This document shows, in pieces, positions 24,042-64,000 of a stretch of DNA of 64,000 bases (the stretch's first letter is position 1; every line of letters starts with the position of its first letter). The notes beneath the pieces were generated by a model. It did not search any database. It saw nothing but the letters and a program-made list of their open reading frames with translations, and had not been told where the DNA came from. This stretch comes from Candidatus Aenigmatarchaeota archaeon (GTDB taxonomy: Archaea; Aenigmatarchaeota; Aenigmatarchaeia; CG10238-14; SpSt-28). Location of the stretch: positions 71,863 through 135,862 of the forward strand of contig JAVYPJ010000001.1 in assembly GCA_038733315.1 (NCBI GenBank), in the 5' to 3' direction. A program made the translations under genes and the position numbers.

Positions 24042-25959
24042 CTAAACTTCAATATTTACACTTTTTATTCCAACTAATAATCCGGGACATACGTCTAAAC
24101 AATAAACTTCTATTTTTTTAATTTTCCCCTTAGGTAAATCTTTTAAAGGAATTTCTAAAAAATCTCCAAGCTTAAAAGTTTCATTCAGATTTATATTTCT
24201 TGTTTCTGTTTTGTTATCTTCGTATATTAATTTTAACTGTAATTTTTTACCTAAATCAATACCTAAATTTATTATAGTTAGTTTTATTATTGGAGAGGTT
24301 TCTTCGGTCTGTAGGGAAATTGTTGGTTCTGGAGATGAATATTTAAATGGTAATACTATGCTAATACTTTCAGATGTATAATATCCTCTTTCAAAAACTA
24401 AAATCGGTTTATTTGATGCTATCCTTATTAATCCCCAAGATGTTGTTACAGAATATTCTAATTGCTGTCCTTTATTTATAGCAACATTCGTATATGTTAT
24501 AGCACCCGAAATATTAAATACTGTATTATCTTCAGTTCCAATAATTCTTACATATCTTGAACCCCTACCAACTCTAAAAACAAAATATGTTCCCGCTCCT
24601 TTTCCATTTATACTTGGAATTTGTTCAGAACCATAATTATAATAATTGCCCTCTGTATAAACTAATACAGGCTTATTTGCAACAACCTTCATTCTAACAT
24701 ACTCTGGAGCATTACTTGAAAAACTTGTTATCTGTTGTGTTCTTATATAATCTCCTTCATTTGCTAAAATTCCTGACCAATCTCCTGTAGTTCCTTCCAA
24801 ATTATCTATAATTACATTTGTATTAGGATATAAAGCTGAAACTATTGTATAGCCATGAGAATAAAAGTAATAAATTTGAGTTCCATTTGGATAAGTTCTT
24901 CCATATATAATTGTGTAAATACTATCATCTTCTAAACCAAATTGAGCTGTTACATCATATGTTGCATTTATATAATAAAATCCAGGTGTTAAACTCCCAG
25001 AATACCAGCATTGACCTTCATTTAATGTTCCACTATATACATCTTGTAAATTAGAATTTTGTACTCTAACAAAATTATTATTATCATAGCTACAAATCCA
25101 TAAATGTCTTGGAACTCTAATCCATATTTTGTTTCCATAAATACTTGTTACATCATCATCTGAATCATGATCTGGTCCTATATCATCATAAGTTAAAGAA
25201 ATTGGTTTTGTTGATTTTATATAATAAGGATAATCTGAATTACAAGTATATGATGTAGATTGGAATTTATTTAAAGCTATTGTTTGAACTAATTGCCAAG
25301 TATCACTTCTATATATTGTTATAGTATTTCCATCTTCGTAAGAAACTATTCTAAATGCTGTTCCATTTCCAGTACTAACATTCAAACATGTAGAATAAAA
25401 CTCTGTTCCAATATAATTTGGAGTAATTAAGGAAAAATCTTGTTGAGAGTTAGCATTAGGATTTCCATAATACAAATAAATTATTTTTTGAGAATTAGCA
25501 GGAATGTTTGGTACTTTTACCCAAATTCTCGTATTATTTGTATTACAAGTATTTGGCTCTATCCAATAATTTAGTAAAGTAATTCCATCACTATCTGTAA
25601 ATCTAATATCTCCACAATCACTTCTCATTTTTCCTTGAGAAATCAATTCTTGAGTATTTATTGTTACTAAAATTTGATAATCTTCTAAATTCTCTGAATT
25701 CTGAGTATTATTTATTATTATAGGAATTCTATATTTAAAATCTTTATTAGCATTAAAATCTATTCTTGCCTTTGAACATTCTATAATTGATTTTATTGGA
25801 GAGGTTTCTTCAGTTTTTGTTTCTAAATAAGAAACGTAGCCAGAAAAATAAAGATATAATGTAACTCCAATTCCTATTGTTAAAGCAACTAAAATAACTG
25901 TAGCTACATATACGGAAATTAATTTTTTTAAGCTCGAATTTTTATATATATATATTCAT
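24042..25959 (-). CDS. Type IV pilin-like protein with an inserted DUF2341-like plus IgGFc-binding-N-like cassette; ATG out of frame
   Basis: Frame is open from 25955 to 24042 and encodes KKLISVYVATVILVALTIGIG..., a DUF2341-like head, a passenger and a pilin-like C-terminus; nearest ATG (25959-25957) is shifted by (AT)6. Confidence 0.8.
24288..24305. repeat. 18-bp direct repeat TATTGGAGAGGTTTCTTC (other copy 25794-25811)
   Basis: Both copies encode EETSPI; 1506 bp apart, in frame. Confidence 0.85.
25944..25955. repeat. (AT)6 microsatellite just after the ATG; candidate phase-variation switch
   Basis: Minus strand reads ATG A (AT)6 AAAAATTCG; n=4 or n=7 restores the frame. Confidence 0.75.
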
Positions 25960-27781: not shown

Positions 27782-27806
27782 ATTTTTAAATCGAATAAAA
27801 TATTTT

Positions 27807-35871: not shown

Positions 35872-35879
35872 AAAATATT

Positions 35880-37484
35880 TTAAGTTTCCACAACAAAAAT
35901 ATAACCGAGTTTTTTTGTTATATCACTTTCTTTTAATTTAAGGATTTTTCTTTTTGCTTCCTCATATTCAATCTTACCCTCTATCATTTGCATTAAAGTT
36001 TTTTTATCCTTATAATACATCTTTATTATTTCCGCTACCTCTTCATAACTTTTTTTATTATTTTTTTGCATCCATTCAATAACCTTAATTCTATCTTCTA
36101 TTTCTTTAATAGCGTTTTCCATCGTAATACCATATTTTTCACAGATTTTTGGAATCAGTAAGCTTTCACTTGCTTTTTCATAAGAATCTGTAAATGGATT
36201 CCATCTATATGTTATGTTTTGCATAACCTCACCCCTTTCATCGATTCCACCAATCTCCACAATCTCCTTAATTCTTCTAGCATATTCTCCTTTTTCTTTA
36301 GCCCTTTTCATTACTATTACAAAATCTAAGGCTTCTACTAGTCCGATTGGTAATTCTATTGGTGGAGAAATCAATCTTTTAACTAAGGAGCTAACATCTT
36401 CTGCATGGAATGTAGATATACTCGCATGACCAGAAGCCATACCTTGAAACATAACATAAACTTCTCTACCTCTTGTTTCCCCAACAATAACATATTCTGG
36501 ATTCATTCTAAAACTTTCTCTTAGTAAATCAAAAAGGGTTACTTCTCCATATTTACTTCCACTAGGAAGCGGTAAACCAAAACCTACTCTAGTAACTAAA
36601 GGAACCCAATGCTCATGAACAAATCTCAATTCTCTTGTATCTTCTATACTTACAATCTTGGCATCTGGTCTAATAAAAATTCCTAAGCTATTTAAAAAGC
36701 TCGTTTTTCCACTTCCTACACCGCCAATTATTAAAAAAGATGTTTTATGCTCTATTAGAAACCATAAATATGCTAAAATTTCGCTATTTACAGTTTTTAA
36801 GTCTATTAATTCTATTGGAGAAAATGGTTTCTCAGTAAATTTTCTTATAGTAAAAGATGGGCCTTTTTGAGATATCTCTTCGCTAAAAGTTGCGCTAACT
36901 CTTGAGCCATCCGGTAAAGTTCCTTCTAAAATGGGTTCAGCATAAGATACGTATCTTCCACATTTTTGAGATAATTTGATTATGAATTCCTTTAGCTTTT
37001 CTATATCTCTAAAAATAATATTAGTTCTTATGTTTCCAAAGTATCTATGAGTTACGTATATTGGCAAATTAACTCCACTACAGCTTATGTCCTCTATGTA
37101 TGGATCGTGCATTAATGGCTCTATTTCGTTTAAACCTATAAAATCTCTAAAAATATAATAACTAATTTTCAGAAAACTTTCGCTATCAACCTTAATTTTC
37201 AATATACTTATTACTTTCTTAATAGCCTCTTCTACTGTTTTATTTAGTATTTCTTTATTTTTAACTTTTTCTAAATCTATGTCCAAATATTCTAAGATAA
37301 GCTCTTTTATTCTTTCTAACGTTTTCTTCTCACTATCATTTAGCTCTGGCTCTATTACTTCGTAAAAAATACTTTTATCTTCTTTGTTATAGAAAATGTG
37401 AGCATATGCATATGGTTTTATTAATTCATATTTTATATTTAGATTTTCGATTTTCTCCGGGATTTTTATTTCAAGTATTTCCAT
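35880..37484 (-). CDS. Type II/IV secretion (pilus assembly) ATPase
   Basis: DPYIEDISC, TIRKF, GGVGSGKT, SIEDTRE, VGETRGRE, TFHA. Confidence 0.95.
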   Translation of the reverse strand: MEILEIKIPEKIENLNIKYELIKPYAYAHIFYNKEDKSIFYEVIEPELNDSEKKTLERIKELILEYLDIDLEKVKNKEILNKTVEEAIKKVISILKIKVDSESFLKISYYIFRDFIGLNEIEPLMHDPYIEDISCSGVNLPIYVTHRYFGNIRTNIIFRDIEKLKEFIIKLSQKCGRYVSYAEPILEGTLPDGSRVSATFSEEISQKGPSFTIRKFTEKPFSPIELIDLKTVNSEILAYLWFLIEHKTSFLIIGGVGSGKTSFLNSLGIFIRPDAKIVSIEDTRELRFVHEHWVPLVTRVGFGLPLPSGSKYGEVTLFDLLRESFRMNPEYVIVGETRGREVYVMFQGMASGHASISTFHAEDVSSLVKRLISPPIELPIGLVEALDFVIVMKRAKEKGEYARRIKEIVEIGGIDERGEVMQNITYRWNPFTDSYEKASESLLIPKICEKYGITMENAIKEIEDRIKVIEWMQKNNKKSYEEVAEIIKMYYKDKKTLMQMIEGKIEYEEAKRKILKLKESDITKKLGYIFVVET

Positions 37485-41058: not shown

Positions 41059-41985
41059 ATGAAAGTTTATCCAATAGCTTTCGATTCCTTAGGAGTAAGG
41101 AGTATGTCAACTATTGTTGTTTTAAATGATATCAAAATTTTTATAGATCCCTATGCTGCTCTAGCACCTATAAGATATGGATTAAAGCCAAGTCATTTAG
41201 AAATTGAAATGTTAAATTTTTACCTTGAACAAATATATAAACTTGGAAGTTATTGTGACTATGCCATAATTACTCACTATCATTACGATCATCATCCTAT
41301 ACCAGAGGATAATAATTTTTTTAAAAGTTTTAAAAAATGTCATTTTTTAATAAAGGATTTCGAAAAAGAACATTTTAGTGCCAAAAAAAGAGGAAGTGTT
41401 TTCACTAATAATTTAAAAAAGAATAAAATAAGCTTTGAGTTTGTAGATGGTAAAAAGATAAAGATAGAAGATATTAAGATAAAGTTTTCGAAGCCTGTTT
41501 GGCATGGAGAAGTAAACTCTAAGGTTGGAAGAGTTATAATGGTTTGCATAGAGTATTTAAATAGAAAGTTATTTTTTGGAAGCGATGCACAGTTTTTAAT
41601 AGATAAAAATGCCTTGAAATTTGCATTAAAAACAAAACCAAATTACTTAATTATCGATGGATTCCCAACAATTTTAGAGGGTTATAAAGTAAAGCATGAA
41701 AGTTTTCTTGAAGGAATAAAAAATATGAAAAAAATATTTGGAAGGGTTAATTATAGCTGGATTATAATAGACCATCATTTACTAAGAGATAAGGATTTTG
41801 AAAAGAAATTTCCTTTTTTTGATTATAAAAAAATAATCACCGCAGCAAAATTTTATAATTTAGAAAATTTGTTATTAGAAGCTTATAGAAAAGAAATATA
41901 TAAAAAAGAAATAATTTTTGATTTAGAAGTTTATAAAGATAACGCTAGAAAAGTTATCTCTAAAATAATAAATTCTTCGATATAA
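41059..41985 (+). CDS. Metallo-beta-lactamase-fold hydrolase (UPF0282-like)
   Basis: FDSLGVRSM, THYHYDHH, WHG, SDAQ, DHHLLRD. Confidence 0.88.
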   Translation: MKVYPIAFDSLGVRSMSTIVVLNDIKIFIDPYAALAPIRYGLKPSHLEIEMLNFYLEQIYKLGSYCDYAIITHYHYDHHPIPEDNNFFKSFKKCHFLIKDFEKEHFSAKKRGSVFTNNLKKNKISFEFVDGKKIKIEDIKIKFSKPVWHGEVNSKVGRVIMVCIEYLNRKLFFGSDAQFLIDKNALKFALKTKPNYLIIDGFPTILEGYKVKHESFLEGIKNMKKIFGRVNYSWIIIDHHLLRDKDFEKKFPFFDYKKIITAAKFYNLENLLLEAYRKEIYKKEIIFDLEVYKDNARKVISKIINSSI

Positions 41986-53613: not shown

Positions 53614-55256
53614 AATACTTAGTAACAGCTGCATTGCCATATACAAACAACTTGCCACACATAGGAAATATTGCTGGCTCTCATTTACCTGCAGACATTT
53701 ACCAAAAGCTACTTAAAATTTTTGGTTACAATGTTATTTTTATTGGTGGTACTGATGAGCATGGAAGCCCTATAGAAATTGCTGCAATAAAAGAAAATAA
53801 AAATCCAAAAGAATTATGTGATTATTATTATGCTCTTCACAAAAAAATATACGATTGGTTAAGAATAGATTATGATAACTTTTCAAGAACTTCTAATAAA
53901 ACAAATCACGAAATGACGCAATATATTTTTAAAAAATTGTATGAAAATGGTTATATAACTGAAGGTTTTTTAACTTTAGCATATTGCGAATTTGATAAAC
54001 GATTTCTTCCAGATAGATATGTAGAAGGAATTTGTCCATTTTGTAAGTATGAAAAAGCTAGAGGCGATCAGTGCGAAAATTGTGGAAGGCTTTTGGATCC
54101 GATAGATTTAGTAAATCCAAAATGCGTTCTATGCGGAAATAAGCCAATCTTTAAAGAAACTAGGCATTTATTCTTAGATTTAGCAAAAACAGAAAAAAAA
54201 CTTTTAAAATGGATATTAAAAAATAAACATTGGAAAGATAATGTAAGAAATTTTGCTTTAAGCTGGATTAAGGAAGGTTTAAAAAAGAGAAGTATTACAA
54301 GAGATTTGAGTTGGGGTATTAAAGTTCCGTTAGAAAATTATAAAGATAAAGTATTTTATGTTTGGTTTGATGCTCCAATAGGATACATTTCCTCTACAAT
54401 CGAATACTTTGAAAAAATAGGAAAAAAAGATGAATGGAAAAAATATTGGCTAAAAAATTCTAAAGCTAGAATAATTCATTTCCTAGGAAAAGATAACATT
54501 CCATTTCATACAATATTTTGGCCCGCTATTTTAATTGGTACTAAGGAATTTAATTTGCCATATAATGTTGTTGGTTTAGAGTATCTAAACTTTGAAAATA
54601 AAAAAATTTCTAAAAGCCAGAATTGGGGAGTTTTTTTTGAAATAGAGGATGAAAAAATATTAGTTAGAATTAAAGATAAAAAAATTGAAATAGATAGCGA
54701 TTATATTAGATTTTACTTAGCATATATTTTACCAGAGAATAAAGATGCAAACTTTTCTATTAACGAATTTAAAGAAAAAATAAATAAAGAATTAATTGGA
54801 AATTTTGGAAACTTTGTTTATAGAGTATTGAGCTTCACGGAGAAATATTATAACTTAGAAATTCCTAAGGCAAAATTATCTAAGAAAGAAAGAGAAATTT
54901 TAAAGATTATAAAGGAATCAAAAAAAGATATTAAAAATAACGTTAAAAATGTTGAAATTAAAAAAATTCTATATAAGATTTTAGAGTTGTCTTCAATCGC
55001 TAATAAATATTTTCAAGAAAGCGAACCATGGAAAAATAAAGAAAAAAGGGATTTGACTGTTATGTTTTCTATAAATCTTGTTAAGGATTTGACTATACTC
55101 TTTTGGCCTTTTATTACGAAATCCTCTGAAAAGATTTTCTATTTCTTAAATTATTCTTTCGAACCAAAAAACGCTATAAAAAATGTTGGTAAAATAGAAT
55201 TAAAGAGTTGTAAAATTAGAAAGCCAGAAATTATTTTCAAACCGCTTGAATTTTAA
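53610..55256 (+). CDS. metG: Methionyl-tRNA synthetase (short form)
   Basis: LPY, HIGN, GTDEHG, YVWFDAPIGY, GKDNIPFH, KISKS. Confidence 0.96.
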   Translation: MKYLVTAALPYTNNLPHIGNIAGSHLPADIYQKLLKIFGYNVIFIGGTDEHGSPIEIAAIKENKNPKELCDYYYALHKKIYDWLRIDYDNFSRTSNKTNHEMTQYIFKKLYENGYITEGFLTLAYCEFDKRFLPDRYVEGICPFCKYEKARGDQCENCGRLLDPIDLVNPKCVLCGNKPIFKETRHLFLDLAKTEKKLLKWILKNKHWKDNVRNFALSWIKEGLKKRSITRDLSWGIKVPLENYKDKVFYVWFDAPIGYISSTIEYFEKIGKKDEWKKYWLKNSKARIIHFLGKDNIPFHTIFWPAILIGTKEFNLPYNVVGLEYLNFENKKISKSQNWGVFFEIEDEKILVRIKDKKIEIDSDYIRFYLAYILPENKDANFSINEFKEKINKELIGNFGNFVYRVLSFTEKYYNLEIPKAKLSKKEREILKIIKESKKDIKNNVKNVEIKKILYKILELSSIANKYFQESEPWKNKEKRDLTVMFSINLVKDLTILFWPFITKSSEKIFYFLNYSFEPKNAIKNVGKIELKSCKIRKPEIIFKPLEF

Positions 55257-55963
55257 TCCTTTTTATATTTTGGAATGTTTCTTAATGCATCAAACATTGC
55301 CTGAATTAAGTTCATGTGTTGTTTTGTTCTTCCGAATGTTTTGCTCCAAACATCTTTAATTCCAGCTAATCTTAATAGTTTTTTGCTTTCATCATCTACA
55401 ACTAATCCAGTTCCCCTAGGCGCTGGCATAAGTATAACTTTAACACTTCCGCTTTTCCCATAACTTTTCCATGGAATTGAATGTGGCTGCTTACAATCGC
55501 ATTCCCAACTACCGCAGCCCATATAAACCTTTATTATGTTTAATTTTGCGTTTCTTATAGCTTTTAAATATGCACTTCTGCCATCTTTTGCCTTTCCTCT
55601 ACCTATTCCTACATGTCCATTCTCATCGCCAACAATTACCATTACAGAATATTTTATTCTCCTTCCGCTAGCAGTAACTTTTTGGCTTCTCTTTACTGGA
55701 ATTCTCTTACCTCCTCCACCCTTAGTTCCACCCTTTCCTATTAATACTGGCTCTATTTTTAAATTCGGTAATAAAATGTCTACTATTTCTGCCTCTAATA
55801 TTTTTAAACCATTTTCTAATATTTCATCTATACTTTTTATTTTTCCCTCTAAAACTAATTTACCTAATTTTGTTTTTGGAGTCCAATTAGAGAGTGAATC
55901 GGGTAAAGGGAGTTTTATATCTTCTGCCTTTTCCTCTTCTTGCCTTTCTTCTACCTCAACCAT
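55253..55963 (-). CDS. rps5: Ribosomal protein uS5
   Basis: WTPKTKLG, GCGSWEC, PAPRGTG. Confidence 0.96.
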   Translation of the reverse strand: MVEVEERQEEEKAEDIKLPLPDSLSNWTPKTKLGKLVLEGKIKSIDEILENGLKILEAEIVDILLPNLKIEPVLIGKGGTKGGGGKRIPVKRSQKVTASGRRIKYSVMVIVGDENGHVGIGRGKAKDGRSAYLKAIRNAKLNIIKVYMGCGSWECDCKQPHSIPWKSYGKSGSVKVILMPAPRGTGLVVDDESKKLLRLAGIKDVWSKTFGRTKQHMNLIQAMFDALRNIPKYKKD

Positions 55964-56483
55964 AATCTTTTAAAATCTTTTCTTTAACTTTATAAAAATC
56001 TTGTGTTATATTTTTAAACTTTTCAATATAACTTGCAATATGTTTCCCTTCAATTCTATCTTCTGTTGGAAAAATTTCATCACTATGAGGAATTTTTAAT
56101 CCAGCATCAATCGCACCTTTCAAAACTGCAAATATTCTATTTCCCTTTGTACTTCTATTTATTCCTATATCCAATATAGCCTCTTGAATTCCGTTTTTTA
56201 AAGCTAATTTACCTATTATTATTCCAGTAAGATAAGCTGCTGGTAAATTTTTACAAGAATACTTCCAATCGTATTTATCCTTTAATATTTTAGAGGTTAT
56301 GCCTAAGATTGTGTAATCTTGAGCTATTTTAGATTTTACTAGTTGTGCAATGATATATTTATTTGTCTTTCTTACGACTAATCTAATCTTTCCACTTTTT
56401 AATAAACCTATTCTTTGTCTATAATCTGTTTTATATTTTCTTCTCCTTTTATATGGCATTATATATGTTGTTTTATGAACCAT
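55956..56483 (-). CDS. rpl18: Ribosomal protein uL18
   Basis: KTDY, RLVVRKTN, NLPAAYLTG. Confidence 0.95.
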   Translation of the reverse strand: MVHKTTYIMPYKRRRKYKTDYRQRIGLLKSGKIRLVVRKTNKYIIAQLVKSKIAQDYTILGITSKILKDKYDWKYSCKNLPAAYLTGIIIGKLALKNGIQEAILDIGINRSTKGNRIFAVLKGAIDAGLKIPHSDEIFPTEDRIEGKHIASYIEKFKNITQDFYKVKEKILKDYG

Positions 56484-56901
56484 TTTTTTCCTCTTTAATT
56501 AACTTATGCGTTTGTATATATAACTTTAAGTGTGTAGTGCTTCTAAAGAATCCGCCCTTTGCTAAATCTCTTAACTTTCTATATGTTCTATTATCAATTT
56601 TTCCCTCTTTTTTTAGAGCTTTTAAATATCTCCTTATTGGTCTAATTCTATTTATCCAATGTCTTTTTCTTGGTATTATAGAATATTTTCCACCTTTCCT
56701 TACATGTTTTTTTTCTTTTTTATCTTTTTTTGGCAAAAAGTCTTTTTTAGATTTTATTATTCCTCTAAAAATTAATTTTTTTACATCAGCTGTGGTAATT
56801 GCTTTTTCTGCCTCCTTAATTTTAGATGGGTCTATCCAAACCTTGCTTTTTCCTACCTTTAATATCTTCGAGGCTAATCTTTTTACAGTCTGAATAGCCA
56901 T
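56473..56901 (-). CDS. rpl19e: Ribosomal protein eL19
   Basis: KRLASKILKVG..VWIDP; WINRIR; AKGG.F. Confidence 0.95.
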   Translation of the reverse strand: MAIQTVKRLASKILKVGKSKVWIDPSKIKEAEKAITTADVKKLIFRGIIKSKKDFLPKKDKKEKKHVRKGGKYSIIPRKRHWINRIRPIRRYLKALKKEGKIDNRTYRKLRDLAKGGFFRSTTHLKLYIQTHKLIKEEKNGS

Positions 56902-56934
56902 TAATATATTATTTTAAAAATAAATTATAATTTA

Positions 56935-57876
56935 ATGAAAGTTTTAATAACTGGGATTGCTGGATTTATTGGATCTAATTTAGCAGAAGAATTAGTAAAA
57001 AAAGGCTATAAAGTTTATGGAATTGATAATTTACATACTGGTAATATAGAAAATATTAAAAATATAATAGAAGATATAGTATTCTTAGAAGGAAGATCGA
57101 AAACAATTATAAATCTTAATGAAAAATTTGATGTTATATTTCATCTTGGAACTTATTCTTCTAGCCCTATGTATAAACAAAATCCGTTTTTAGTAAATGA
57201 AGTTGTAGAAGATATGATGGCGATTTTAGAATATGCAAAAAAGAACAATTCAAAAATTATTTTCTCTTCAAGTTCTAGCTTATATAATTGGAATCCTATA
57301 CCATGGAATGAAAATATGGAAATAAAAGTTACCGATTATTATACAGAAGCAAAATACCTATGCGAAAGATTATGTGAACTTTATGCAAAATTGTTTAAGA
57401 TTAAATGCATATCTCTAAGATATTTTAGTGTTTTTGGAGAAAATGAAGAATATAAAGGAAAGTATGCTAACGTTATTACCCAAATGGTATGGCATGCATT
57501 AAATCAAAAAGAATTTGAGATTTTTGGTGATGGTTCACAAAGCAGAGATTTAATATATGTTAAAGATGTTGTTGAAGCAAATTTAAAGGCAATGGAATTT
57601 GAAGATTTTAATAAAATTCCTTTTGAAATATTTAATGTTGGCTCTGGAAAAAACTATTCGTTTAATGATATGGCAAATATTGTTAAAAAATTCTTAGATT
57701 TAAGAGTAAAATACGTAAATAATCCTATAAATAACTATGTTCATCATACATTAGCCGATACTACAAAAGCTAGGGAAATCTTAAAGTTTAAAACTAAATT
57801 CGAAGTTGAAAAAATTTTGCCGAAAATTATAGAATATTATAGTAAAAAAATTCAAAAAATAAAAATAAAAATATAA
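56935..57876 (+). CDS. NAD-dependent NDP-sugar epimerase/dehydratase
   Basis: TGIAGFIGS, YTEAK (YxxxK), GDGSQSRD. Confidence 0.92.
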   Translation: MKVLITGIAGFIGSNLAEELVKKGYKVYGIDNLHTGNIENIKNIIEDIVFLEGRSKTIINLNEKFDVIFHLGTYSSSPMYKQNPFLVNEVVEDMMAILEYAKKNNSKIIFSSSSSLYNWNPIPWNENMEIKVTDYYTEAKYLCERLCELYAKLFKIKCISLRYFSVFGENEEYKGKYANVITQMVWHALNQKEFEIFGDGSQSRDLIYVKDVVEANLKAMEFEDFNKIPFEIFNVGSGKNYSFNDMANIVKKFLDLRVKYVNNPINNYVHHTLADTTKAREILKFKTKFEVEKILPKIIEYYSKKIQKIKIKI

Positions 57877-57880
57877 TTTT

Positions 57881-59008
57881 ATGCTTTGGATTTTTAAATA
57901 TAAGCCAAAAAGTTTAAATGAGTTTGTAAACCAAAAAGAGGCTATACAAAAATTTTTACAATGGTATAAAAATTGGAAAAATATTAAAAAAGCTGCTTTA
58001 TTGTTTGGCCCGCCTGGAACTGGAAAAAGTTGTTTTGTAGAAGCTTTTGCTAGAGATAATAACTTAGAATTAATACAATTAAATGCCAGTGATAAAAGAG
58101 ATTATAACTCTATTAGAAATATTATTGGAAATGCAGCAAAAAGTTTAAGCATTTTTAAAAAAGGAAAAATATTTTTTATAGATGAAGTTGATGGGATTTC
58201 TGCTAGAGAAGATGTTGGCGCAGTAAAAGAAATTGTTAGAATTATTCAAGAATCGAAATTTCCAATAGTTTTGGCAGCTAACGATCCTTTTGATGCAAAG
58301 TTAAAAGAATTAAGAGAAAATTGCGAATTAATAGAATTTAAAAGATTAAGTGTTTTTGATATAGAAAAAAAACTTATTGAAATATTAGAAAAAGAGGGGA
58401 TAAAGTATGATAAAAATGTTGTAAGAGAAATTTCTAGTAGAAATAATGGAGATTTAAGAGGAGCTATAAATGATTTAGAAATTGTTGCTAGAAATAAAAA
58501 GGAAATAAAAAAAGAGGATTTAGAAATTTTAGGGTTTAGAGATAGAGAGCAGCAAATATTTGAAGCATTAAAAATTCTTTTTAAAACCAAAAGTGCTATG
58601 GCTGCGAAAATGAGTATTATTAATTTAGATATGGAGCCAGAAGAAATTTTTTATTGGATTGAAGAAAATATAGCGAACGAATATGAAAAAATAGAAGAAA
58701 TTGCAAGTGCTTATGATCGCTTAAGTAAAGCTGATTTATTTAGAAAAAGAATATTGTCTAGACAAAATTGGAGGTATTTGGTCTATATGAATGATTTAAT
58801 GACAATCGGAGTTGCACTATCTAAAAAGGAAATGTATAGAAAATTTACAAGATATAAGCCGCCAAGCATTTTGAAACTATTAGCACAAACTAAACAAATA
58901 AGAGAGCAAGAAAAAATAAAATTGAAGGAATTTGCTGAAAAGCTACATTGCTCAACAAAAAAGATTAAAACAGAATTTATGCCATATTTATCAAAATTTT
59001 TAAAATAA
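57881..59008 (+). CDS. rfcL: Replication factor C large subunit
   Basis: KYKP, GPPGTGKS, LNASD, DEVDG, GDLRGAINDL, WIEEN. Confidence 0.93.
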   Translation: MLWIFKYKPKSLNEFVNQKEAIQKFLQWYKNWKNIKKAALLFGPPGTGKSCFVEAFARDNNLELIQLNASDKRDYNSIRNIIGNAAKSLSIFKKGKIFFIDEVDGISAREDVGAVKEIVRIIQESKFPIVLAANDPFDAKLKELRENCELIEFKRLSVFDIEKKLIEILEKEGIKYDKNVVREISSRNNGDLRGAINDLEIVARNKKEIKKEDLEILGFRDREQQIFEALKILFKTKSAMAAKMSIINLDMEPEEIFYWIEENIANEYEKIEEIASAYDRLSKADLFRKRILSRQNWRYLVYMNDLMTIGVALSKKEMYRKFTRYKPPSILKLLAQTKQIREQEKIKLKEFAEKLHCSTKKIKTEFMPYLSKFLK

Positions 59009-59021
59009 AGAATAATTTATT

Positions 59022-62000
59022 ATGAAAAAAGAAAAAATTTTTTTGATTTTTCTTTTTTTTACAATTTTTATATTTAACTTTTCTCTATCTTTTTCTCAAA
59101 CCTGGCTTTCTGGTTGGCAATATAGAATTCCAATAACAATTAGAGAAAATTCTGGGAATACTTTAACAGATTACCAAATTTTAGTAACAATAAATACTCA
59201 GAACTTAATTTCTCAAGGAAAAATGAGAAGTGATTGCGGAGATATAAGATTTACTGATAGTGATGGAAGAACTTTATTGAATTATTGGATTGAAGATGGA
59301 TGTAATTCTACTAATACAAAAATTTGGGTAAAAGTACCAAATATTCCTGCTAATTCAAATAAAATAATTTATTTGTATTATGGAAATCCAAATGCTAATT
59401 CGATGAGTAATGGAGATTTGGTTTTTGAATTTTTTGATGATTTTAGAACAAATCCCAATACAAATGGTAAATGGAGAATTTTTAGATACTCAAATGACGT
59501 TAATAACGAGTTCGTATGGGACAACACAAATAATCAAGTGTATCTGACAAGAAATTTAAATGGTAAAGGTGTTATGGCGTTTTTTAATAAATCTTTTTCA
59601 CCATATAATACCATTACAGAATTTGAAATTTATATTGGCGGCGGTAATGGTGCTGACGGATTGTCGTTTTATTTCGATAAAAACATAAATCCATATATAA
59701 CCTATGGAAGAGCACTTGCTGGAGGCAGTATGGCAAGTATGGCCTTCGATGGTTCTAATTCCTATCTTTCTGAAGGATATAGCATAGGATTCGATACTCG
59801 GCGAAACACCGAAAATGGATATGAACAATCTACGCCACATATAGAAGTTGCAAGGACTAGCGCAACAAACCCTAGTGTACATTATTCGGGAGCTCATCTA
59901 ACTTCCGTCTCTTATTCAAACTTAAGAGGAAATTGGTTGAAGGTAGTAGTAATAATAAAATCTAATGCTGTTGAAGTTTATATAAACAACGTTCTACAAC
60001 TCAGTTATACTGGTTTAACATCTCTAAATTATAACTGGCAGGGGATTGGTGCGTCGACTGGCGGGTATAATGACAATCATGCGATAAAAAACTTAAGAGT
60101 TAGAAAATTCGCACCACAAGAGCCAACATATACATTAGGTAGGGAAGAGTCCATCACTTTAGTTCCCGTATGGCTAAGTTATTTTTCTAACGTTTCTCAA
60201 GCTATAATTAATCAGCCGATAAAATTTTCGAGCTTATGGAATGCTTCCCAAATTCCATATTTAACCCAACCTTCTCAAACCTGGCTTTCTGGTTGGCAAT
60301 ATAGAATTCCAATAACAATTAGAGAAAATTCTGGGAATACTTTAACAGATTACCAAATTTTAGTAACAATAAATACTCAGAACTTAATTTCTCAAGGAAA
60401 AATGAGAAGTGATTGCGGAGATATAAGATTTACTGATAGTGATGGAAGAACTTTATTGAATTATTGGATTGAAGATGGATGTAATTCTACTAATACAAAA
60501 ATTTGGGTAAAAGTACCAAATATTCCTGCTAATTCAAATAAAATAATTTATTTGTATTATGGAAATCCAAGTGCTACTTCTATGAGTAATGGAGATAATA
60601 CTTTTATATTTTTTGATGATTTCTCCTTTAGAAACATTTCCAAATGGAATTGGCCTGACAACTGGATTATAGAAAATAACACAGCAAAACAAACAGTAGC
60701 GAATTGGTGGAGTTCCGAGTTGATCTCTCAAAAACTGAATATTGGAATCAGCAATTATGTTGGTATTTGTATAAAAACGTTGGCCATAAACGACGGCACC
60801 GTTCGGGCGTACGATGTTGTAGTCTCAGTTAATATTAGTAATTCGTGGTATAATTCACCGTTCTTTACAACGTCCTATGCATGGTACGGTTTTTTCGATA
60901 GAATATGTTCTGGAAGTGGAAGTTGCCCGTATGGAGAGACTAGGCAATGGAGAGTCTATGATATTATAATATTTACTAATAATCAAACGTGGTATTTGGA
61001 CGGATCTGTTATAGATTCTAGAAATTCAGCCGTAGGTAATATTATTTATAATTTTGCCATAAATTCAAAAGGTGTTAGTAGATTCGATTATTTTATAGTT
61101 AGAAAATGTAGTAGAATAAATCCAATTGTTTCTCTTGGAAGTGAAGAGATACTTTCCTCATCTTCAAGCGTCTTTCTCTCAAACTACATTTTCTCATATA
61201 AATTAGGAAATTCTCAATGGATTAATGAAACCTATAGATTTGGTCCCGTATATCAAACCTGGCTTTCTGGTTGGCAATATAGAATTCCTATAACAATTAG
61301 AGAAAATTCTGGAAATACTTTAACAGATTATCAAATTTTAGTAACGATAAACACTCAGAACTTAATTTCTCAAGGAAAAATGAGAAATGATTGTGGAGAT
61401 ATAAGATTTATAGATAGTGATGGAAGTATTTTATTAAATTATTGGATTGAAAGTGGTTGCAATACAACTAATACAAGAATTTGGGTAAAAGTACCAAATA
61501 TTCCGGCTAATTCTCAAAAAACAATTTATTTGTATTATGGAAATCCAAGTGCTACTTCTATGAGTAATGGAACTAGCACTTTTATATTTTTTGATGATTT
61601 TGAAGATGGTGATTACACTAATAATCCTGTATGGAATATAGATACCGGTCAAAAAATATGTACAAGCTACTGTTGTGGAAGTTATAGTGCTTCTAACAGA
61701 TATTTAGAATTAACATCAGGTTTTTGCTCTTTAAATCTTTATTCAGATTTACCTCAACCGATATCACCACAAAAAATAGCAATAGATTTTAACTCTTGGT
61801 GGACAGGAACACATTGTTATAATAATGAAGTTCTCTTACTAAACTCATCAAACGCTATAATGATTGGTGGTGGCGGTGTTTTATGTGATTATCATTCTAT
61901 AAGAGCCCTAGAGCTTAGAGTAAATAATAATTTTTATTCTAGCAGCTTGGATTTCCCATATGGCACTTGGCATCGTATAACTATTATATTTAATGGAACT

Positions 62001-63149
62001 CATTATACTGTTAGAATGAACGATGTAAATACTTATTCTATTTCTGAAGCAATCTATCCATATCCTATAACGACAATATACATAGGAGGTTGGCAACATT
62101 CTATGGGCGCTAAATTTGATAATATTAGAATTCGCAAATACACTTCACCAGAACCAACAGTTTCCATAGGAAATGAAGAAACTATGCTACCTTTCACAGC
62201 CTGGGCAAATGTTACAAAAAGTTTCTCTCAGCCAGGAACATTGTGTTGGAAATTTTATGCAAACAATACTCTAAATCTATGGAATGTTACGCCAGAAAGT
62301 TGCTTAAATATAATTTCGCCAGATTTTTGGCTAGAAGCTAAACTATTAGATCCTAGAGAAAATAGTATAATAAACCTAATTCCTGGAGAAGGAATTCAAG
62401 TAAAAGCAAATGTAACATTAAGGTCTAACTATTTCTTTTGTACGAATGGAAACGCAACTCTAAGATATAATACTTCGACTTCAATGCTACCAAATACTGC
62501 AATACCAACGTCTTCCGCACCTATAACAACAGATACAAATCCAATATACGTTGGAAATCTATGTGTAAATAATTCTACTCAAGTTGTTTTTAATTTAATA
62601 GCTAACAGTCAAACTTATAAGATAGTAGATGTAAATTTCTGCTTTGAGCAAATATGTAATAATACATTGCGTTTTTTTGTTAACGTTTCTATAACAACAC
62701 CAAGAAACCTAACATTAAAAAAAGGATGGAACTTAATTTCTATACCCTATAAAACTATAAATCTTGATTTGAACAGAGATGGATGTAATTTAAGAGAAAG
62801 GGTATTTCACTATTTTAATGCTTCGTCGAACTCTTGGGAATATCATACCTATAAAAATTTAAGAGGTGGAATAGCATATTGGATTTATAGCGAAAAAAAT
62901 TGTGAATCGGTTTTATATGTTAGTGACGCAGTTACTCCAAACGACATGCCAGGAATAATACGAGGAAAAAAGAATTATATAGGTAGTTTAAGCTCTTCAA
63001 GAAGTCTTCAAGAAATATATACCAACATACGACAACTATGTAATTCTGTCAGTATAGCACGCTGGGATTCCGAAAGAAACGCATTCTTAAATATAGATAT
63101 ATCAAGCAATTTAACTCCTTGGTACGGTTATATCTTAGAATGTTCTTAA
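59022..63149 (+). CDS. Secreted multi-cassette surface protein: three DUF2341-like heads, each with a different lectin-like passenger
   Basis: Signal peptide; three WLSGWQYRIPITI...DIRF...YWIE...WVKVP...YYGNP heads; many N-x-S/T sequons; C-terminal GWNLISIP...YWI domain. Confidence 0.85.
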   Translation: MKKEKIFLIFLFFTIFIFNFSLSFSQTWLSGWQYRIPITIRENSGNTLTDYQILVTINTQNLISQGKMRSDCGDIRFTDSDGRTLLNYWIEDGCNSTNTKIWVKVPNIPANSNKIIYLYYGNPNANSMSNGDLVFEFFDDFRTNPNTNGKWRIFRYSNDVNNEFVWDNTNNQVYLTRNLNGKGVMAFFNKSFSPYNTITEFEIYIGGGNGADGLSFYFDKNINPYITYGRALAGGSMASMAFDGSNSYLSEGYSIGFDTRRNTENGYEQSTPHIEVARTSATNPSVHYSGAHLTSVSYSNLRGNWLKVVVIIKSNAVEVYINNVLQLSYTGLTSLNYNWQGIGASTGGYNDNHAIKNLRVRKFAPQEPTYTLGREESITLVPVWLSYFSNVSQAIINQPIKFSSLWNASQIPYLTQPSQTWLSGWQYRIPITIRENSGNTLTDYQILVTINTQNLISQGKMRSDCGDIRFTDSDGRTLLNYWIEDGCNSTNTKIWVKVPNIPANSNKIIYLYYGNPSATSMSNGDNTFIFFDDFSFRNISKWNWPDNWIIENNTAKQTVANWWSSELISQKLNIGISNYVGICIKTLAINDGTVRAYDVVVSVNISNSWYNSPFFTTSYAWYGFFDRICSGSGSCPYGETRQWRVYDIIIFTNNQTWYLDGSVIDSRNSAVGNIIYNFAINSKGVSRFDYFIVRKCSRINPIVSLGSEEILSSSSSVFLSNYIFSYKLGNSQWINETYRFGPVYQTWLSGWQYRIPITIRENSGNTLTDYQILVTINTQNLISQGKMRNDCGDIRFIDSDGSILLNYWIESGCNTTNTRIWVKVPNIPANSQKTIYLYYGNPSATSMSNGTSTFIFFDDFEDGDYTNNPVWNIDTGQKICTSYCCGSYSASNRYLELTSGFCSLNLYSDLPQPISPQKIAIDFNSWWTGTHCYNNEVLLLNSSNAIMIGGGGVLCDYHSIRALELRVNNNFYSSSLDFPYGTWHRITIIFNGTHYTVRMNDVNTYSISEAIYPYPITTIYIGGWQHSMGAKFDNIRIRKYTSPEPTVSIGNEETMLPFTAWANVTKSFSQPGTLCWKFYANNTLNLWNVTPESCLNIISPDFWLEAKLLDPRENSIINLIPGEGIQVKANVTLRSNYFFCTNGNATLRYNTSTSMLPNTAIPTSSAPITTDTNPIYVGNLCVNNSTQVVFNLIANSQTYKIVDVNFCFEQICNNTLRFFVNVSITTPRNLTLKKGWNLISIPYKTINLDLNRDGCNLRERVFHYFNASSNSWEYHTYKNLRGGIAYWIYSEKNCESVLYVSDAVTPNDMPGIIRGKKNYIGSLSSSRSLQEIYTNIRQLCNSVSIARWDSERNAFLNIDISSNLTPWYGYILECS
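59093..59391. repeat. 299-bp exact repeat, cassette head copy A
   Basis: Identical to 60272-60570. Confidence 0.93.
60272..60570. repeat. Cassette head copy B
   Basis: Identical to copy A; downstream sequence then follows copy C. Confidence 0.93.
61253..61600. repeat. Cassette head copy C (diverged)
   Basis: Scattered substitutions relative to A/B; 3' end matches B. Confidence 0.9.
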
Positions 63150-63556
63150 CTAGCTCTTGGCCTCCAACTAAAAACTATTAATTCTTTATAATATATTTTT
63201 CCATCACTAAAAACTAATTCCGCTTCGCTTGTAGATGGAAATTGTTGAAATGGTTGATTGCATGGGGAAACTCTTATATCTATAGTTACAAAATATCCAA
63301 AATCCCTTAATTTTTCTAATGTCTTAGCAAACTCCTCTGTATTATATTTAAATTCTTCACAATCTTTTGACAAACTCGCTATTTCTAAGAACTTTTCCTT
63401 AATGTTTTTAACTAAAAGAGCGTATTCAGGTATGTATTGAGATGTATCTACATAAAACATTCCTGTAATAGTAAAGTATAGAGCTATTAAAGCGCCTACA
63501 ATTAAAACTGCTGTTAAAGTCATGAACTGTGCTTTATAATATTTGTAATATTGCAT
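63146..63556 (-). CDS. Pilin-like protein with class III signal peptide
   Basis: KA/QF followed by a hydrophobic helix. Confidence 0.6.
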   Translation of the reverse strand: MQYYKYYKAQFMTLTAVLIVGALIALYFTITGMFYVDTSQYIPEYALLVKNIKEKFLEIASLSKDCEEFKYNTEEFAKTLEKLRDFGYFVTIDIRVSPCNQPFQQFPSTSEAELVFSDGKIYYKELIVFSWRPRAS

Positions 63557-63833
63557 GTTTTTGCCCATCTATAATTAAAATGTTCTTTTCACTAATTAAA
63601 CCTTTTTCAATAAGTAAATTTACAACATTTTTTCCAAATGCATTTATAACGTTAAAACTTTCGTTACTTATAAGACTTAGAAGTTCGTTCTGATTAACAG
63701 TTCTTTCGAAATAAAAATCTTTGGAAACTTTTAATTTAACACCCCTATACTCGAATTCTTTATCTATAACATCTATATCGCAAATAGCTAATATTTTTAC
63801 TCCGAATTTTTCATGAATCTTTATACAAAACAT
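63534..63833 (-). CDS. DUF424-family protein
   Basis: LAICD, VSKDFY, INAFG, HA motifs. Confidence 0.85.
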   Translation of the reverse strand: MFCIKIHEKFGVKILAICDIDVIDKEFEYRGVKLKVSKDFYFERTVNQNELLSLISNESFNVINAFGKNVVNLLIEKGLISEKNILIIDGQKHAILQIL

Positions 63834-64000
63834 TTAATATCTCAATATTTTTTTATTTCCACAAGCTTCACACCTTAAATATCTTATATTATTTTCCTTG
63901 ATTATAACAGTTTCCGGTTTTTGGCATAAATCGCATAAAACAAAGTACTTAACGTATTCATCTAACTTTTTCCTTAGAATTTCTCTATTAATAATTCCGT
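63834..64000 (-). CDS. eif2b: Translation initiation factor aIF-2 beta, C-terminal part (partial)
   Basis: Manual translation YVKYFVLCDLCQKPET...LRCEACG. Confidence 0.88.
   Translation of the reverse strand, partial: GIINREILRKKLDEYVKYFVLCDLCQKPETVIIKENNIRYLRCEACGNKKILRY

Follow-up and report, generated by a model that had tools for sequence, protein, structure and literature searches.

A predicted surface protein of a hot-spring archaeon carries three sugar-binding-type modules between DUF2341 heads and conserved tails, with signs of module exchange

Layout of gene A and its paralogs

We consider a gene, here called gene A, in a 64,000-nucleotide stretch of DNA (the window) from a hot-spring archaeon of the Aenigmatarchaeota (DPANN), whose genome measures 733 kb and is 94% complete. 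The single open reading frame of gene A would encode a modular secreted surface protein, with 26 cysteines and 28 N-x-S/T sequons. Its layout is a threefold succession of a DUF2341 head, a passenger and a tail of the form RKYxxPEPTxxxGxEE, followed by a C-terminal domain of 320 residues. Pfam recognizes DUF2341 (PF10102) in three stretches (E 4e-94; 309.7 bits, cut-off 23.4). The features, together with two further loci of the window, are the following:

59022..63149, + strand: gene A, single ORF of 1375 aa, stop codon at 63147-63149
59022..59096, + strand: signal-like hydrophobic N-terminus, aa 1-25, Sec-type by eye; 25/25 residues identical in the public relative P0161
59097..59441, + strand: head 1, DUF2341, aa 26-140 (Pfam, repeat search)
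59442..60101, + strand: passenger 1, aa 141-360, L-type (legume-like) lectin fold in a predicted model
60102..60149, + strand: tail 1, RKFAPQEPTYTLGREE
60150..60275, + strand: linker L1, first half of an inter-unit linker that orthologs have in one piece
60276..60620, + strand: head 2, DUF2341, aa 419-533 (Pfam, repeat search)
60621..61100, + strand: passenger 2, aa 534-693, ConA-like jelly roll in a predicted model, no Pfam family
61101..61148, + strand: tail 2, RKCSRINPIVSLGSEE
61149..61253, + strand: linker L2, second half of the inter-unit linker
61254..61598, + strand: head 3, DUF2341, aa 745-859 (Pfam)
61599..62132, + strand: passenger 3, aa 860-1037, DUF1080 / 3-keto-disaccharide-hydrolase-like ConA fold by Pfam match
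62133..62180, + strand: tail 3, RKYTSPEPTVSIGNEE
62181..63146, + strand: C-terminal domain, about 320 aa, 10 Cys, no family match
24042..25955, - strand: paralog E, with a pilin-like N-terminus, a DUF2341 head, an IgGFc_binding-like passenger, the tail FKYSSPEPTISLQTEE and a shared 90-aa C-terminus
34193-37484: type IV pilus (T4P) ATPase and two TadC genes

The three head, passenger and tail units reported in a preliminary description of this DNA are present with exactly the borders given there, the tails ending at 60149, 61148 and 62180. They were called cassettes, a word that needs restating because all three are domains of one protein and not separate cassettes. Since L1 and L2 are the two halves of a linker that is contiguous in orthologs, unit 2 lies exactly between them. 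The N-terminus of the protein matches no pilin model and does not look like a pilin-type (class III) signal. The neighbors of gene A are an epimerase, the RFC large subunit, a 140-aa ORF and a DUF424 gene; it stands outside any T4P gene cluster, the T4P ATPase and TadC genes being 21 kb away. The C-terminal domain forms the conserved scaffold of the syntenic gene, with 50-55% identity within the genus and 94% identity to P0161.

Across the genome there are 11 DUF2341 matches over the cut-off in five ORFs, and the same five genes hold 10 units and 10 tails. No orphan cassette is found in the 94%-complete genome, all heads and tails lying inside these full-length genes. A fourth unit had been placed in a pilin at 24-26 kb; it is real, with a head and a tail, and belongs to paralog E. 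As assembled, paralog E lacks a start codon in frame: a (TA)6 tract at 25943-25954 puts its ATG and the body of the gene in different frames. The N-termini of paralogs C and D score 27-28 bits with the UpsA pilin model (E 2-5e-6), under its cut-off of 130, and neither has a Pfam pilin match. In paralogs D and E, closely similar N-termini (93.5% over 493 nt) and C-termini (93.4% over 304 nt) flank unrelated passengers, RCC1 in D and IgGFc_binding-like in E.

Folds of the passengers and tails

The passengers were described as not alignable by eye, which holds for their sequences; in predicted models, however, passengers 1 and 2 are both ConA-like, and passenger 3 matches a ConA-like Pfam family. 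For passenger 1 a legume-lectin-like domain had been guessed from motifs. The fold bears this out: in the predicted model (pLDDT 84.3, pTM 0.85; best Foldseek E 1.4e-9), passenger 1 matches the carbohydrate recognition domain (CRD) of ERGIC-53 (8jp4_A, Z 20.9, rmsd 2.4 over 201 residues), 1r1z (Z 20.6), VIP36 (Z 20.1) and the Methanocaldococcus jannaschii legume lectin domain (7exo, Z 19.1). Family membership does not follow, since the match to Lectin_leg-like (PF03388; E 0.0044, 16.8 bits) stays below the cut-off of 24, while spanning profile positions 33-226 of 230. Against the L-type lectins as a group (the CRDs of ERGIC-53, VIP36 and Emp47p, 7exo, SraP 4m00, Aap 8g1l), the model gives Z 16-21 at a sequence identity of only 9-19%. 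A relative with 55% identity (P0005) has a precomputed PF18483 match. Passenger 1 is thus predicted to have an L-type (legume-like) lectin fold.

Passenger 2 matches no Pfam family, and its model (pLDDT 86.6, pTM 0.86, with a low-confidence Cys/Gly loop) resembles BT3469 (4jqt_B, Z 14.6), a sialidase lectin domain (Z 14.5), the DUF1080 structure 3hbk (Z 14.4) and 1r1z (Z 14.4); its predicted fold is a generic ConA-like jelly roll. It is 58% identical to a unit in genome G005. Passenger 3 matches DUF1080 / 3keto-disac_hyd (PF06439) with 35.1 bits in the whole protein and 29.1 alone (cut-off 26.8), the match covering only the C-terminal 70 profile positions. ConA-like folds include glycoside hydrolases, and rows for GH16 and DUF1080 are among the structure matches.

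Each passenger is closed by a last strand with the residues V/I-R-K-Y/F, after which comes the conserved PEPTxxxGxEE connector. In the model of unit 1, the RKF of the tail is the end of the last jelly-roll strand and PEPT follows; the tail has a pLDDT of 96-97 there, and the fold matches stop at model residues 336-343. In the models of units 1 and 2 alike, the confidence of the tail equals that of the head.

Identity and homogenization of the heads

A direct-repeat search of gene A returns one family of three 300-nt copies, with 59093-59392 and 60272-60571 reported at "100%" and 61250-61549 at 91%. A base-by-base comparison finds the same 299 nt in heads 1 and 2 (59093-59391 and 60272-60570), exactly as the preliminary description had it. 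Their similarity is lost abruptly on the 5' side, while on the 3' side scattered differences extend to about +351, and it is the 3' end of head 2 (about +277 to +351) that equals head 3. Head 2 is therefore itself a mosaic, its 5' 299 nt being those of head 1 and its 3' end that of head 3. Between heads 1 and 3 the identity is about 90%, and at that level an exact run of 299 nt in heads 1 and 2 is not a matter of chance, because 0.9^299 is less than 1e-13. Heads 1 and 2 also precede passenger types that other species carry.

Synonymous differences are fewer inside a gene than from one genome to another: among codons for the same residue, 0.9% differ between heads 1 and 2, compared with 11-29% between genomes, so that the proposed homogenization of heads is borne out within genes. 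Clustering of heads by gene and genome holds in part. In the head tree, the three heads of G003, which have three different passengers, cluster at 100/100, whereas the heads of G004, G005, G001 and G002 do not group by genome. The genome label changes 10 times on this tree compared with a shuffled mean of 14.2, the tree being weakly resolved (4 of 20 inner branches well supported, 10 open). Heads remain 60-86% identical even in proteins labeled as other phyla, so that part of their strong conservation is plain purifying selection.

Exchange of passengers among paralogs and relatives

That heads, as had been suggested, and also tails serve as exchange points is supported by two sets of sequences. 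Passenger 3 with its tail is shared with unit 2 of paralog B (93% at the nucleotide level over 730 nt; 97% of amino acids in the passenger), where it follows a very different head. P0161, a protein with a single head that comes from one MAG contig and was compared as protein only, has the signal peptide of gene A (100%), a head 99.1% identical to head 3 and, as noted above, nearly the same C-terminus, yet its passenger is 96% identical to that of another species with only 55% identity in the C-terminus. Its informative sites are 14 window-like to 1 G004-like in the head, 1 to 177 in the passenger and 130 to 3 in the C-terminus. One breakpoint falls inside FFDDF and the other inside the tail, and the protein sequence would make P0161 a clean three-part mosaic.

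The preliminary description counted a fixed locus architecture across strains as evidence against exchange; instead, the number and type of units vary across relatives. At the syntenic locus between RFC_L and DUF424, five genomes of the same genus carry one or two recognized units of differing types. The states of the locus are [I][II][III]; [X][X]; [X][I']; and an N-terminal extension followed by [II] or [II']. Of the two X units of G001, P0165 has a single one, and the two C-termini are 99% identical. P0169, a distant relative from another source, has three units with the middle one between L1 and L2. Altogether, 29 passengers, including two inserts within heads, fall into 17 clusters that are unrelated by BLAST.

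Contigs from public metagenome runs give a hint in the same direction. In three of four runs, contigs depart from the C-terminal sequence at the border of tail 3 and come back at a head end, with other sequence between; joints with a short side (21-53 nt) may stem from other organisms. Other passengers apparently lie on flanks about 98% identical, in what are contigs and not phased reads. The depth of passengers 2 and 3 is much lower than that of passenger 1 and the C-terminus, depth being one figure per contig in these Logan contigs, which are not reads.

Recombination machinery

No recombinase or reverse transcriptase had been seen near the locus, and this extends to the whole genome (94% complete): RVT_1, Phage_integrase (tyrosine) and Resolvase (serine) have no match. 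RadA is encoded in the genome, and NurA and HerA lie inside the window. A diversity-generating retroelement is rejected, given the missing RVT_1 and unit differences that are whole-domain replacements and not adenine-specific; a shufflon or invertible segment is likewise rejected, there being no Phage_integrase or Resolvase match in the genome. The repeats of gene A are all direct, in a search limited to direct repeats. A store of silent partial cassettes is not found, the 10 tails and 11 head matches all being in the five full-length ORFs; as the genome is 94% complete, unassembled repeats could hide further cassettes.

Interpretation and rival explanations

The observation in the preliminary description is confirmed and its interpretation partly supported. 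Our main reading, with a probability of roughly three in four, is that gene A encodes a multivalent attachment protein whose modules are exchanged by homologous recombination with no dedicated machinery. The head would be a conserved DUF2341 beta-sandwich packed against the ConA-like jelly roll of the passenger, and by binding glycans the protein may attach to the surfaces of host or partner cells; in paralogs C, D and E, such units would sit on a pilin-like N-terminus. The coding DNA of heads and tails is the sole homology among units, paralogs and related species, so that general homologous recombination crosses over there. The outcomes are passengers replaced, whole units duplicated or deleted, and heads homogenized. 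Cassette shuffling on an evolutionary timescale, and not a programmed switch, is what the compared sequences support. Adhesion is suggested by the predicted folds and the signal sequences; the protein might also play roles in host range or antigenic variation.

It is hardly credible that no recombination took place, with heads and tails kept constant by purifying selection while the passengers diverge fast in place. The identity of heads in proteins labeled as other phyla fits this idea, but the exact run and low synonymous difference of heads 1 and 2, the changing site pattern of P0161 and the passenger that paralog B carries behind a divergent head contradict it, unless those sequences are artefacts. 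We consider it improbable that the three-unit order, the P0161 mosaic or both are assembly chimeras across strains or paralogs, joined at heads or tails. The contigs of all four runs do break at heads, the summed depth of the heads is 50-60 times that of the flanks, depths are unequal among passengers 1, 2 and 3, and many DUF2341 genes of the genus stop at contig ends. Independent contigs nevertheless run from passenger 1 through tail 1 and L1 into the start of head 2, and from passenger 2 through tail 2 into L2; P0169 repeats the three-unit layout; and the joints from tail 3 to a head end recur in three of the four runs with other sequence between. The right breakpoint of P0161 lies in a tail stretch that is only 82-90% identical among the paralog genes of this genome, short and diverged enough that assembly graphs would probably not merge easily there.

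Quite improbable, too, is a programmed, high-frequency switching of passengers within a clone, of the pilE/pilS, vlsE or MgPa type, across the five genes. Identical or near-identical tracts between units and paralogs would suit it, as would the other passengers that co-occurring hot-spring populations appear to hold and paralog E, which is one TA unit from being in frame, like slipped-strand phase switches. The five genes have their own N-termini, however, with no archive of silent promoterless cassettes and no site-specific recombinase or reverse transcriptase in the genome; the swaps observed set strains or species apart, not members of one clone; and the (TA)6 tract may come from an error in assembly or mark a pseudogene. 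The same architecture and evolution might also serve secreted carbohydrate-active or nutrient-scavenging modules, not adhesins, which we hold to be unlikely. Passengers 2 and 3 resemble DUF1080 / 3-keto-disaccharide hydrolase, GH16 glucanases and carbohydrate-binding modules as closely as lectins, and with so small a genome the organism, going by what is known of DPANN archaea, probably depends on external substrates. Against this stand the best matches of passenger 1, which are non-catalytic L-type lectins and the adhesin lectin modules of SraP and Aap, the pilin-like N-termini on which paralogs carry such units, and the RCC1 and IgGFc_binding-like passengers, which are not enzyme folds.

Comparison with known systems

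The evolution of mosaic adhesins by homologous recombination is well known. In CdiA-CT and Rhs polymorphic toxins and in phage receptor-binding proteins, unrelated modules move between strains at conserved border motifs, by homologous recombination at short conserved junctions of a conserved scaffold. Gene A differs from CdiA-CT and Rhs in having neither a toxin-immunity pair nor downstream orphan cassettes, and in modules that are lectin-type and bordered on both sides. In Neisseria pilE/pilS, Borrelia vlsE and Mycoplasma genitalium MgPa, recombination takes place between conserved repeats on either side of variable surface-protein segments; unlike these, the genes here have no silent store or expression-site logic that we could find. 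The modular type IV pilins PilB and PilC of Streptococcus sanguinis have a binding module grafted on a pilin N-terminus (PMC8179133, PMC9934059), a design that, so far as the available text of these papers describes it, is matched by paralogs C, D and E. The archaeal proteins differ in that the module is flanked by a DUF2341 adaptor and a tail, several units can occur per protein, and gene A has no pilin part.

The proposal of a new system does not hold, because there is no dedicated machinery or silent store in the 94%-complete genome and the DUF2341 architecture is already a large annotated family. DUF2341 domain-containing proteins of DPANN archaea and Patescibacteria, with 566 and 498 matches at E <= 1e-5 in two separate searches, have the same head and tail motif around a variable middle that is ConA-like, RCC1 or other. 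DUF2341 occurs in large secreted archaeal proteins of T4P loci (arCOG03508, the Methanococcus Epd locus), which the available part of the source proposes to be pilus-associated adhesins (Makarova et al. 2016, PMC4858521), and a protein of this type, M. maripaludis MMJJ_08210, is listed in a transformation screen (PMC10133366). Compared with the arCOG03508 proteins as presented there, gene A stands apart from pilus operons, has a Sec-like and not a pilin-like N-terminus, and contains three tandem DUF2341-lectin units; a conserved tail and passenger exchange are not described for them in the accessible portions of PMC4858521 and PMC10133366. DUF2341 proteins are treated as large and adhesin-like in annotations and in the available text of PMC11809585, which report no cassette borders or swaps. 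What we describe is a known kind of evolution in a new setting, a hot-spring archaeon with a constant adaptor and interchangeable modules of sugar-binding type, and the cassette borders and one apparently clean swap are here mapped for DUF2341 proteins.

Architecture of gene A and its paralogs

We consider gene A, a single open reading frame of 1375 aa (59022-63149, + strand) in a window of about 27% G+C that also carries the archaeal housekeeping genes fibrillarin, Nop, PolB, PCNA, TFIIB and RFC. The source genome has 733 kb in 7 contigs and is 94% complete; the close homologues are labelled Candidatus Aenigmatarchaeota (DPANN group) by the source databases, and the public runs containing the stretch are hot-spring metagenomes. 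The protein has three units, each made of a DUF2341 head (three Pfam matches, E 4e-94), a passenger and a tail of the form RKYxxPEPTxxxGxEE, followed by a C-terminal domain of 320 aa that gives no family match in Pfam or NCBIfam. Its N-terminus is hydrophobic and, judged by eye, Sec-like, and the protein contains 28 N-glycosylation sequons and 26 cysteines. A PDB sequence search with the whole protein gives nothing meaningful (one ankyrin-like design, E 0.5).

The direct repeats found in gene A by the repeat search form one family of three 300-nt copies, the third of which is 91% identical. The preliminary description reported heads identical over 299 bp, and a base-by-base comparison of 59093-59391 with 60272-60570 indeed gives 0 differences; the unit ends that it placed at 60149, 61148 and 62180 are the exact ends of the three tails. 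Similarity drops sharply at the 5' edge of the 299-nt tract, and on the 3' side there are few differences to about +351. In the base comparison positions +277 to +351 of head 2 agree with head 3 and not with head 1, which makes a mosaic of head 2.

Genome-wide there are 11 DUF2341 matches in 5 open reading frames, and a six-frame scan finds the tail motif exactly 10 times, always within the same five genes.

DUF2341 genes of the genome of the window
Gene A; 59022-63149 (+); three units; Sec-like N-terminus
Gene B; G000:C2:180039-184190, locus L012, 1383 aa; three units; one head interrupted by 143 inserted residues; additional head fragments
Gene C; 918 aa; two units; pilin-like N-terminus
Gene D; G000:C2:95252-96673, locus L014, 473 aa; one unit; passenger of three RCC1 repeats; pilin-like N-terminus
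Gene E; window 24042-25955 (-); one unit; IgGFc_binding-like passenger; pilin-like N-terminus

Genes C, D and E have the N-terminus in common, and likewise a 90-aa C-terminus; the N-termini of C and D match the UpsA pilin model at E 2-5e-6, under the cut-off. A fourth unit had been placed in a pilin, and gene E does carry head, passenger and tail on a pilin-like N-terminus, with its body out of frame as assembled. The frame is broken by a (TA)6 tract (window 25943-25954, - strand) between the conserved ATG and the body; with (TA)5, the computed sequence is one continuous open reading frame starting MSFGK. The tract could be a slipped-strand phase switch, the mark of a pseudogene or an assembly error.

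The heads and passengers of the paralogs show some further peculiarities. The split head of gene B has positions 2-68 and 69-115 separated by 143 residues, and the same split is seen in a protein of another genome of the genus (G005, locus L033). The first head strands are partly duplicated in B and C. In gene D, three RCC1 repeats alone, whose nucleotide sequences are about 90% identical, stand between the DUF2341 head and the tail, against the seven blades normal for a complete RCC1 propeller.

Exchange of passengers at conserved borders

An all-against-all blastn comparison of the five DUF2341 genes gives a patchwork of matches. Passenger 3 of gene A, together with its tail, matches the second unit of gene B with 93% identity over 730 nt, behind a B head of a very different type (branch length 0.95 in the head tree). 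Genes D and E match over 493 nt at the 5' end (93.5%) and 304 nt at the 3' end (93.4%), and the passengers between are unrelated. The tails of the five genes are 82-90% identical over 50-64 nt.

The clearest case is found between species. A search with the C-terminal domain of gene A among longer proteins gives 12 hits, one of which is P0161 (699 aa), from another Aenigmatarchaeota MAG. Its signal peptide (25 of 25 residues), its single head (99.1% to head 3) and its C-terminal domain (94%) follow gene A. Its passenger is unlike every passenger of A and matches, at 96.4% identity, the second of the passengers in the corresponding gene of G004, a genome of the same genus. The C-terminal domain of G004 shares only about 55% identity with that of A or P0161. 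The informative sites of a three-way alignment divide the protein accordingly.

Informative sites of P0161
Head: 14 A-like, 1 G004-like
Passenger and tail start: 1 A-like, 177 G004-like
Rest of tail and C-terminus: 130 A-like, 3 G004-like

Of the two switch points, one lies within the conserved TFIFFDDF; the other separates SSIEP from TVS in the tail. Incongruence between head and passenger had been set beforehand as the test of cassette exchange, and it is seen here; together with the passenger shared by A and B, this mosaic bears out the claim that passengers are exchanged at the head and tail borders.

The identity of heads 1 and 2 has its own history. The two heads differ at 0.9% of same-residue codons, compared with 11-29% for heads between genomes, in line with the earlier view that heads are homogenised. 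They stand before passenger types I and II, both of which are present in other species; the head identity is therefore younger than the passengers, which points to gene conversion or to a recent duplication with replacement.

The syntenic locus in relatives

DUF2341 is found in 27 of the 41 genomes searched, this one included, and in all six other genomes of the genus, from which 19 loci were taken. The order RFC large subunit gene, DUF2341 gene, 140-aa open reading frame and DUF424 is kept in four of them (G001, G002, G004, G005) and in one metagenome contig, and the C-terminal domain of the syntenic gene is 50-55% identical across relatives. The module content varies by genome.

Module content of the syntenic gene
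This genome: types I, II, III
G001: types X, X
G004: types X, I'
G005: N-terminal extension of about 355 aa, then type II
G002: N-terminal extension of about 355 aa, then type II'

Unit number changes as well: P0165 corresponds to the G001 protein (C-terminus 99%) with one X unit against two, so whole units are gained or lost. A fixed locus architecture, which would have spoken against exchange, is thus not what the syntenic loci present. Altogether, 29 passenger segments (two of them inserts inside heads) fall into 17 clusters without BLAST similarity to one another.

A nucleotide tree of 23 complete heads, with 4 of its 20 inner branches well supported, groups the heads partially by gene or genome, and several genomes do not cluster. 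The genome labels need 10 changes on this tree, compared with 14.2 for shuffled labels. Three heads of G003 that carry three different passengers cluster at 100/100, and paired heads group together within A, within G004 and within G001.

Several observations concern the surroundings of the locus. The RFC gene lies directly upstream of the DUF2341 gene in the window (57881-59008) and at loci L018, L020, L027, L030 and L035. Compared with G004 (L027), the left flank of gene A is 84% identical in nucleotides (window 55255-59396) and the right flank 70% (62136-63989); 17% of same-residue codons differ in the RFC gene, and 40-45% in the C-terminal domain of A and the downstream 140-aa open reading frame. 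This difference could be the edge of an inter-species recombination inside gene A, or only the result of different gene constraints. A scan of metagenome contigs with the C-terminal domain gives one locus (48% identity) and no strain-level relatives.

A unit nested in a linker

In five orthologs the linker from a tail to the next head is a single contiguous element of about 65 aa, composed of halves L1 and L2. In gene A, L1 follows tail 1, L2 precedes head 3, and unit 2 lies exactly in between; a unit can thus sit inside the linker element, a layout that would fit a cassette whose two ends are close together. A recent insertion of unit 2 in this genome is disfavoured by P0169, a distant three-unit relative (C-terminus 45% identical, other passengers) with the same nested layout. 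The layout is therefore probably old, and it may have arisen by insertion or by loss elsewhere. We also considered the 8-nt repeat TCTCAAAC, present at both junctions of unit 2, as the mediator of a precise excision and rejected it because the copies are in different reading frames.

Structural models of the passengers and the tail

Structures were modeled for unit 1 (aa 26-398; mean pLDDT 84.3, pTM 0.85) and unit 2 (aa 417-713; mean pLDDT 86.6, pTM 0.86) from alignments of 27 sequences each. Judged by its model, passenger 1 is an L-type lectin fold. It matches the ERGIC-53 CRD (Z 20.9, rmsd 2.4 over 201 residues), VIP36 and an Entamoeba legume-lectin-like domain (both Z 20.1), the legume lectin domain of Methanocaldococcus jannaschii (Z 19.1) and peanut lectin (Z 18.4). 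Lectin modules from two adhesins, SraP and Aap, match at Z about 16-17; Foldseek concurs. The legume-lectin assignment first made from motifs thus holds for the modeled fold and does not extend to Pfam, where the Lectin_leg-like score stays under the cut-off. Passenger 2, with no Pfam family, is modeled as a ConA-like jelly roll (Z about 14.5 to BT3469, sialidase lectin domains, DUF1080 proteins and L-type lectins). Passenger 3 contains a DUF1080/3keto-disac_hyd match with a Pfam score above the cut-off.

The ConA-like fold matches extend to the R-K-F/Y residues of the tail; the first tail residues would therefore be the last jelly-roll strand, and PEPTxxxGxEE a connector. In both models the connector has a pLDDT of 96-97, equal to that of the beta-rich head; this confidence, with the conservation, gives the idea that the tail strand may pack on the head. 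The tail is retained behind passengers that are not ConA-like too (D, E and type X in relatives).

Metagenome contigs

The contigs, not the reads, of four metagenome runs from two studies (X1, X2, X3, X5) were compared with gene A, and stretches without contig cover were left out of the evidence. The contigs break at every head (59182-59378, 60364-60560, 61349-61545), where their summed depth is roughly 50-60x that of the flanks. Two sets of contigs agree with the assembly: in one, the start of head 2 follows passenger 1, tail 1 and L1, and in the other L2 follows passenger 2 and tail 2. The depth of passenger 1 contigs against C-terminus contigs is 108 against 110-127 in X2 and 36.3 against 36.1 in X5; it is far lower for passenger 2 (18.6; 3.6) and passenger 3 (10.4; 9.1). 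In three of the four runs, a contig departs from the C-terminal region at the tail-3 border and runs through about 650 nt of other sequence to a head end. These contigs, with their short matching sides, hint, and no more, that the commoner strains in the samples combine flanks about 98% identical with other passengers.

These hot-spring communities hold many head copies at >=90% identity. At the protein level, heads 60-86% identical carry the source labels WOR-3, Minisyncoccia, Asgard and Thermoplasmata; transfer, or mistakes in binning, may lie behind these labels.

Mechanism, known systems and significance

The preliminary description proposed a candidate new system. What we find is not a new dedicated system: a large family that was already known is being reshaped by ordinary recombination. 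The 94%-complete genome gives no match to RVT_1, Phage_integrase or Resolvase, and neither genome-wide head matches nor the six-frame tail scan give orphan heads or tails that could serve as silent cassettes. RadA is present in the genome, and NurA and HerA lie within the window. General homologous recombination is the simplest mechanism for passenger exchange, and a programmed switch is not indicated.

The head-variable-tail design occurs in hundreds of proteins in the homologue lists, with passengers annotated as Laminin_G_3, Toxin_R_bind_N, DUF1080, L-type lectin, RCC1 and others; both homologue alignments show conservation of head and tail but not of the middle. For Methanococcus, the DUF2341 proteins of pilus loci have been suggested to act as adhesins at the pilus tip (PMC4858521), and in M. 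maripaludis a transformation screen hit a DUF2341 gene of the epd locus (PMC10133366). Large DUF2341 proteins of Patescibacteria are noted as possible adhesion or host-interaction proteins (PMC11809585), and Nanoarchaeota surface proteins are described as unusually variable at the SNP level (PMC6142677). In the openly accessible papers covered, we found no account of cassette borders or swaps for DUF2341 proteins.

Conceptually, the evolution of the DUF2341 passengers is like the cassette exchange familiar from conserved junctions of phage receptor-binding proteins and polymorphic toxins, and like that of mosaic bacterial adhesins. From its modeled folds and its N-terminal signal sequence, we infer that gene A probably encodes a surface protein with a glycan-binding role. 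A wider reading, to which we give a probability of about 0.3, is that the head and the RKYxxPEPT tail make a self-contained socket with adjacent ends that accepts almost any binding domain and can even be nested, as unit 2 between L1 and L2. From a cross-species, community-wide pool of passengers, populations of hot-spring DPANN archaea would then acquire modules by homologous recombination at the borders and redirect their surface proteins to new host glycans, fast enough to differ between co-occurring strains. If true, this would be an archaeal counterpart of the way in which phage receptor-binding proteins and CDI toxins exchange cassettes.

Attachment to other cells is the way of life of DPANN archaea, and few of the molecules with which they choose a host are known. 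The locus offers defined and testable candidates: lectin-type modules whose borders (FFDDF ... RKYxxPEPT) are exact and conserved, one mapped between-species module swap, and a syntenic site at which unit number varies. Passenger content would give a genomic read-out of host range if the modules bound host glycans, and the borders would supply primers and search patterns with which the pool of cassettes could be catalogued from metagenomes. The widespread DUF2341 domain gains a concrete candidate role as an adaptor carrying variable binding domains.

Two further features of the window are recorded here. Three sizeable open reading frames have no Pfam match at E <= 1e-5 (27687-29975, 41059-41985 and 31073-31846, all + strand; 762, 308 and 257 aa). 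A type IV pilus-like assembly set (34193-37484, - strand), with a T2SSE ATPase at 35880-37484 and two T2SSF/TadC-like genes at 34193-35871, has neither gene E (about 8 kb away) nor gene A (21 kb away) in its operon.
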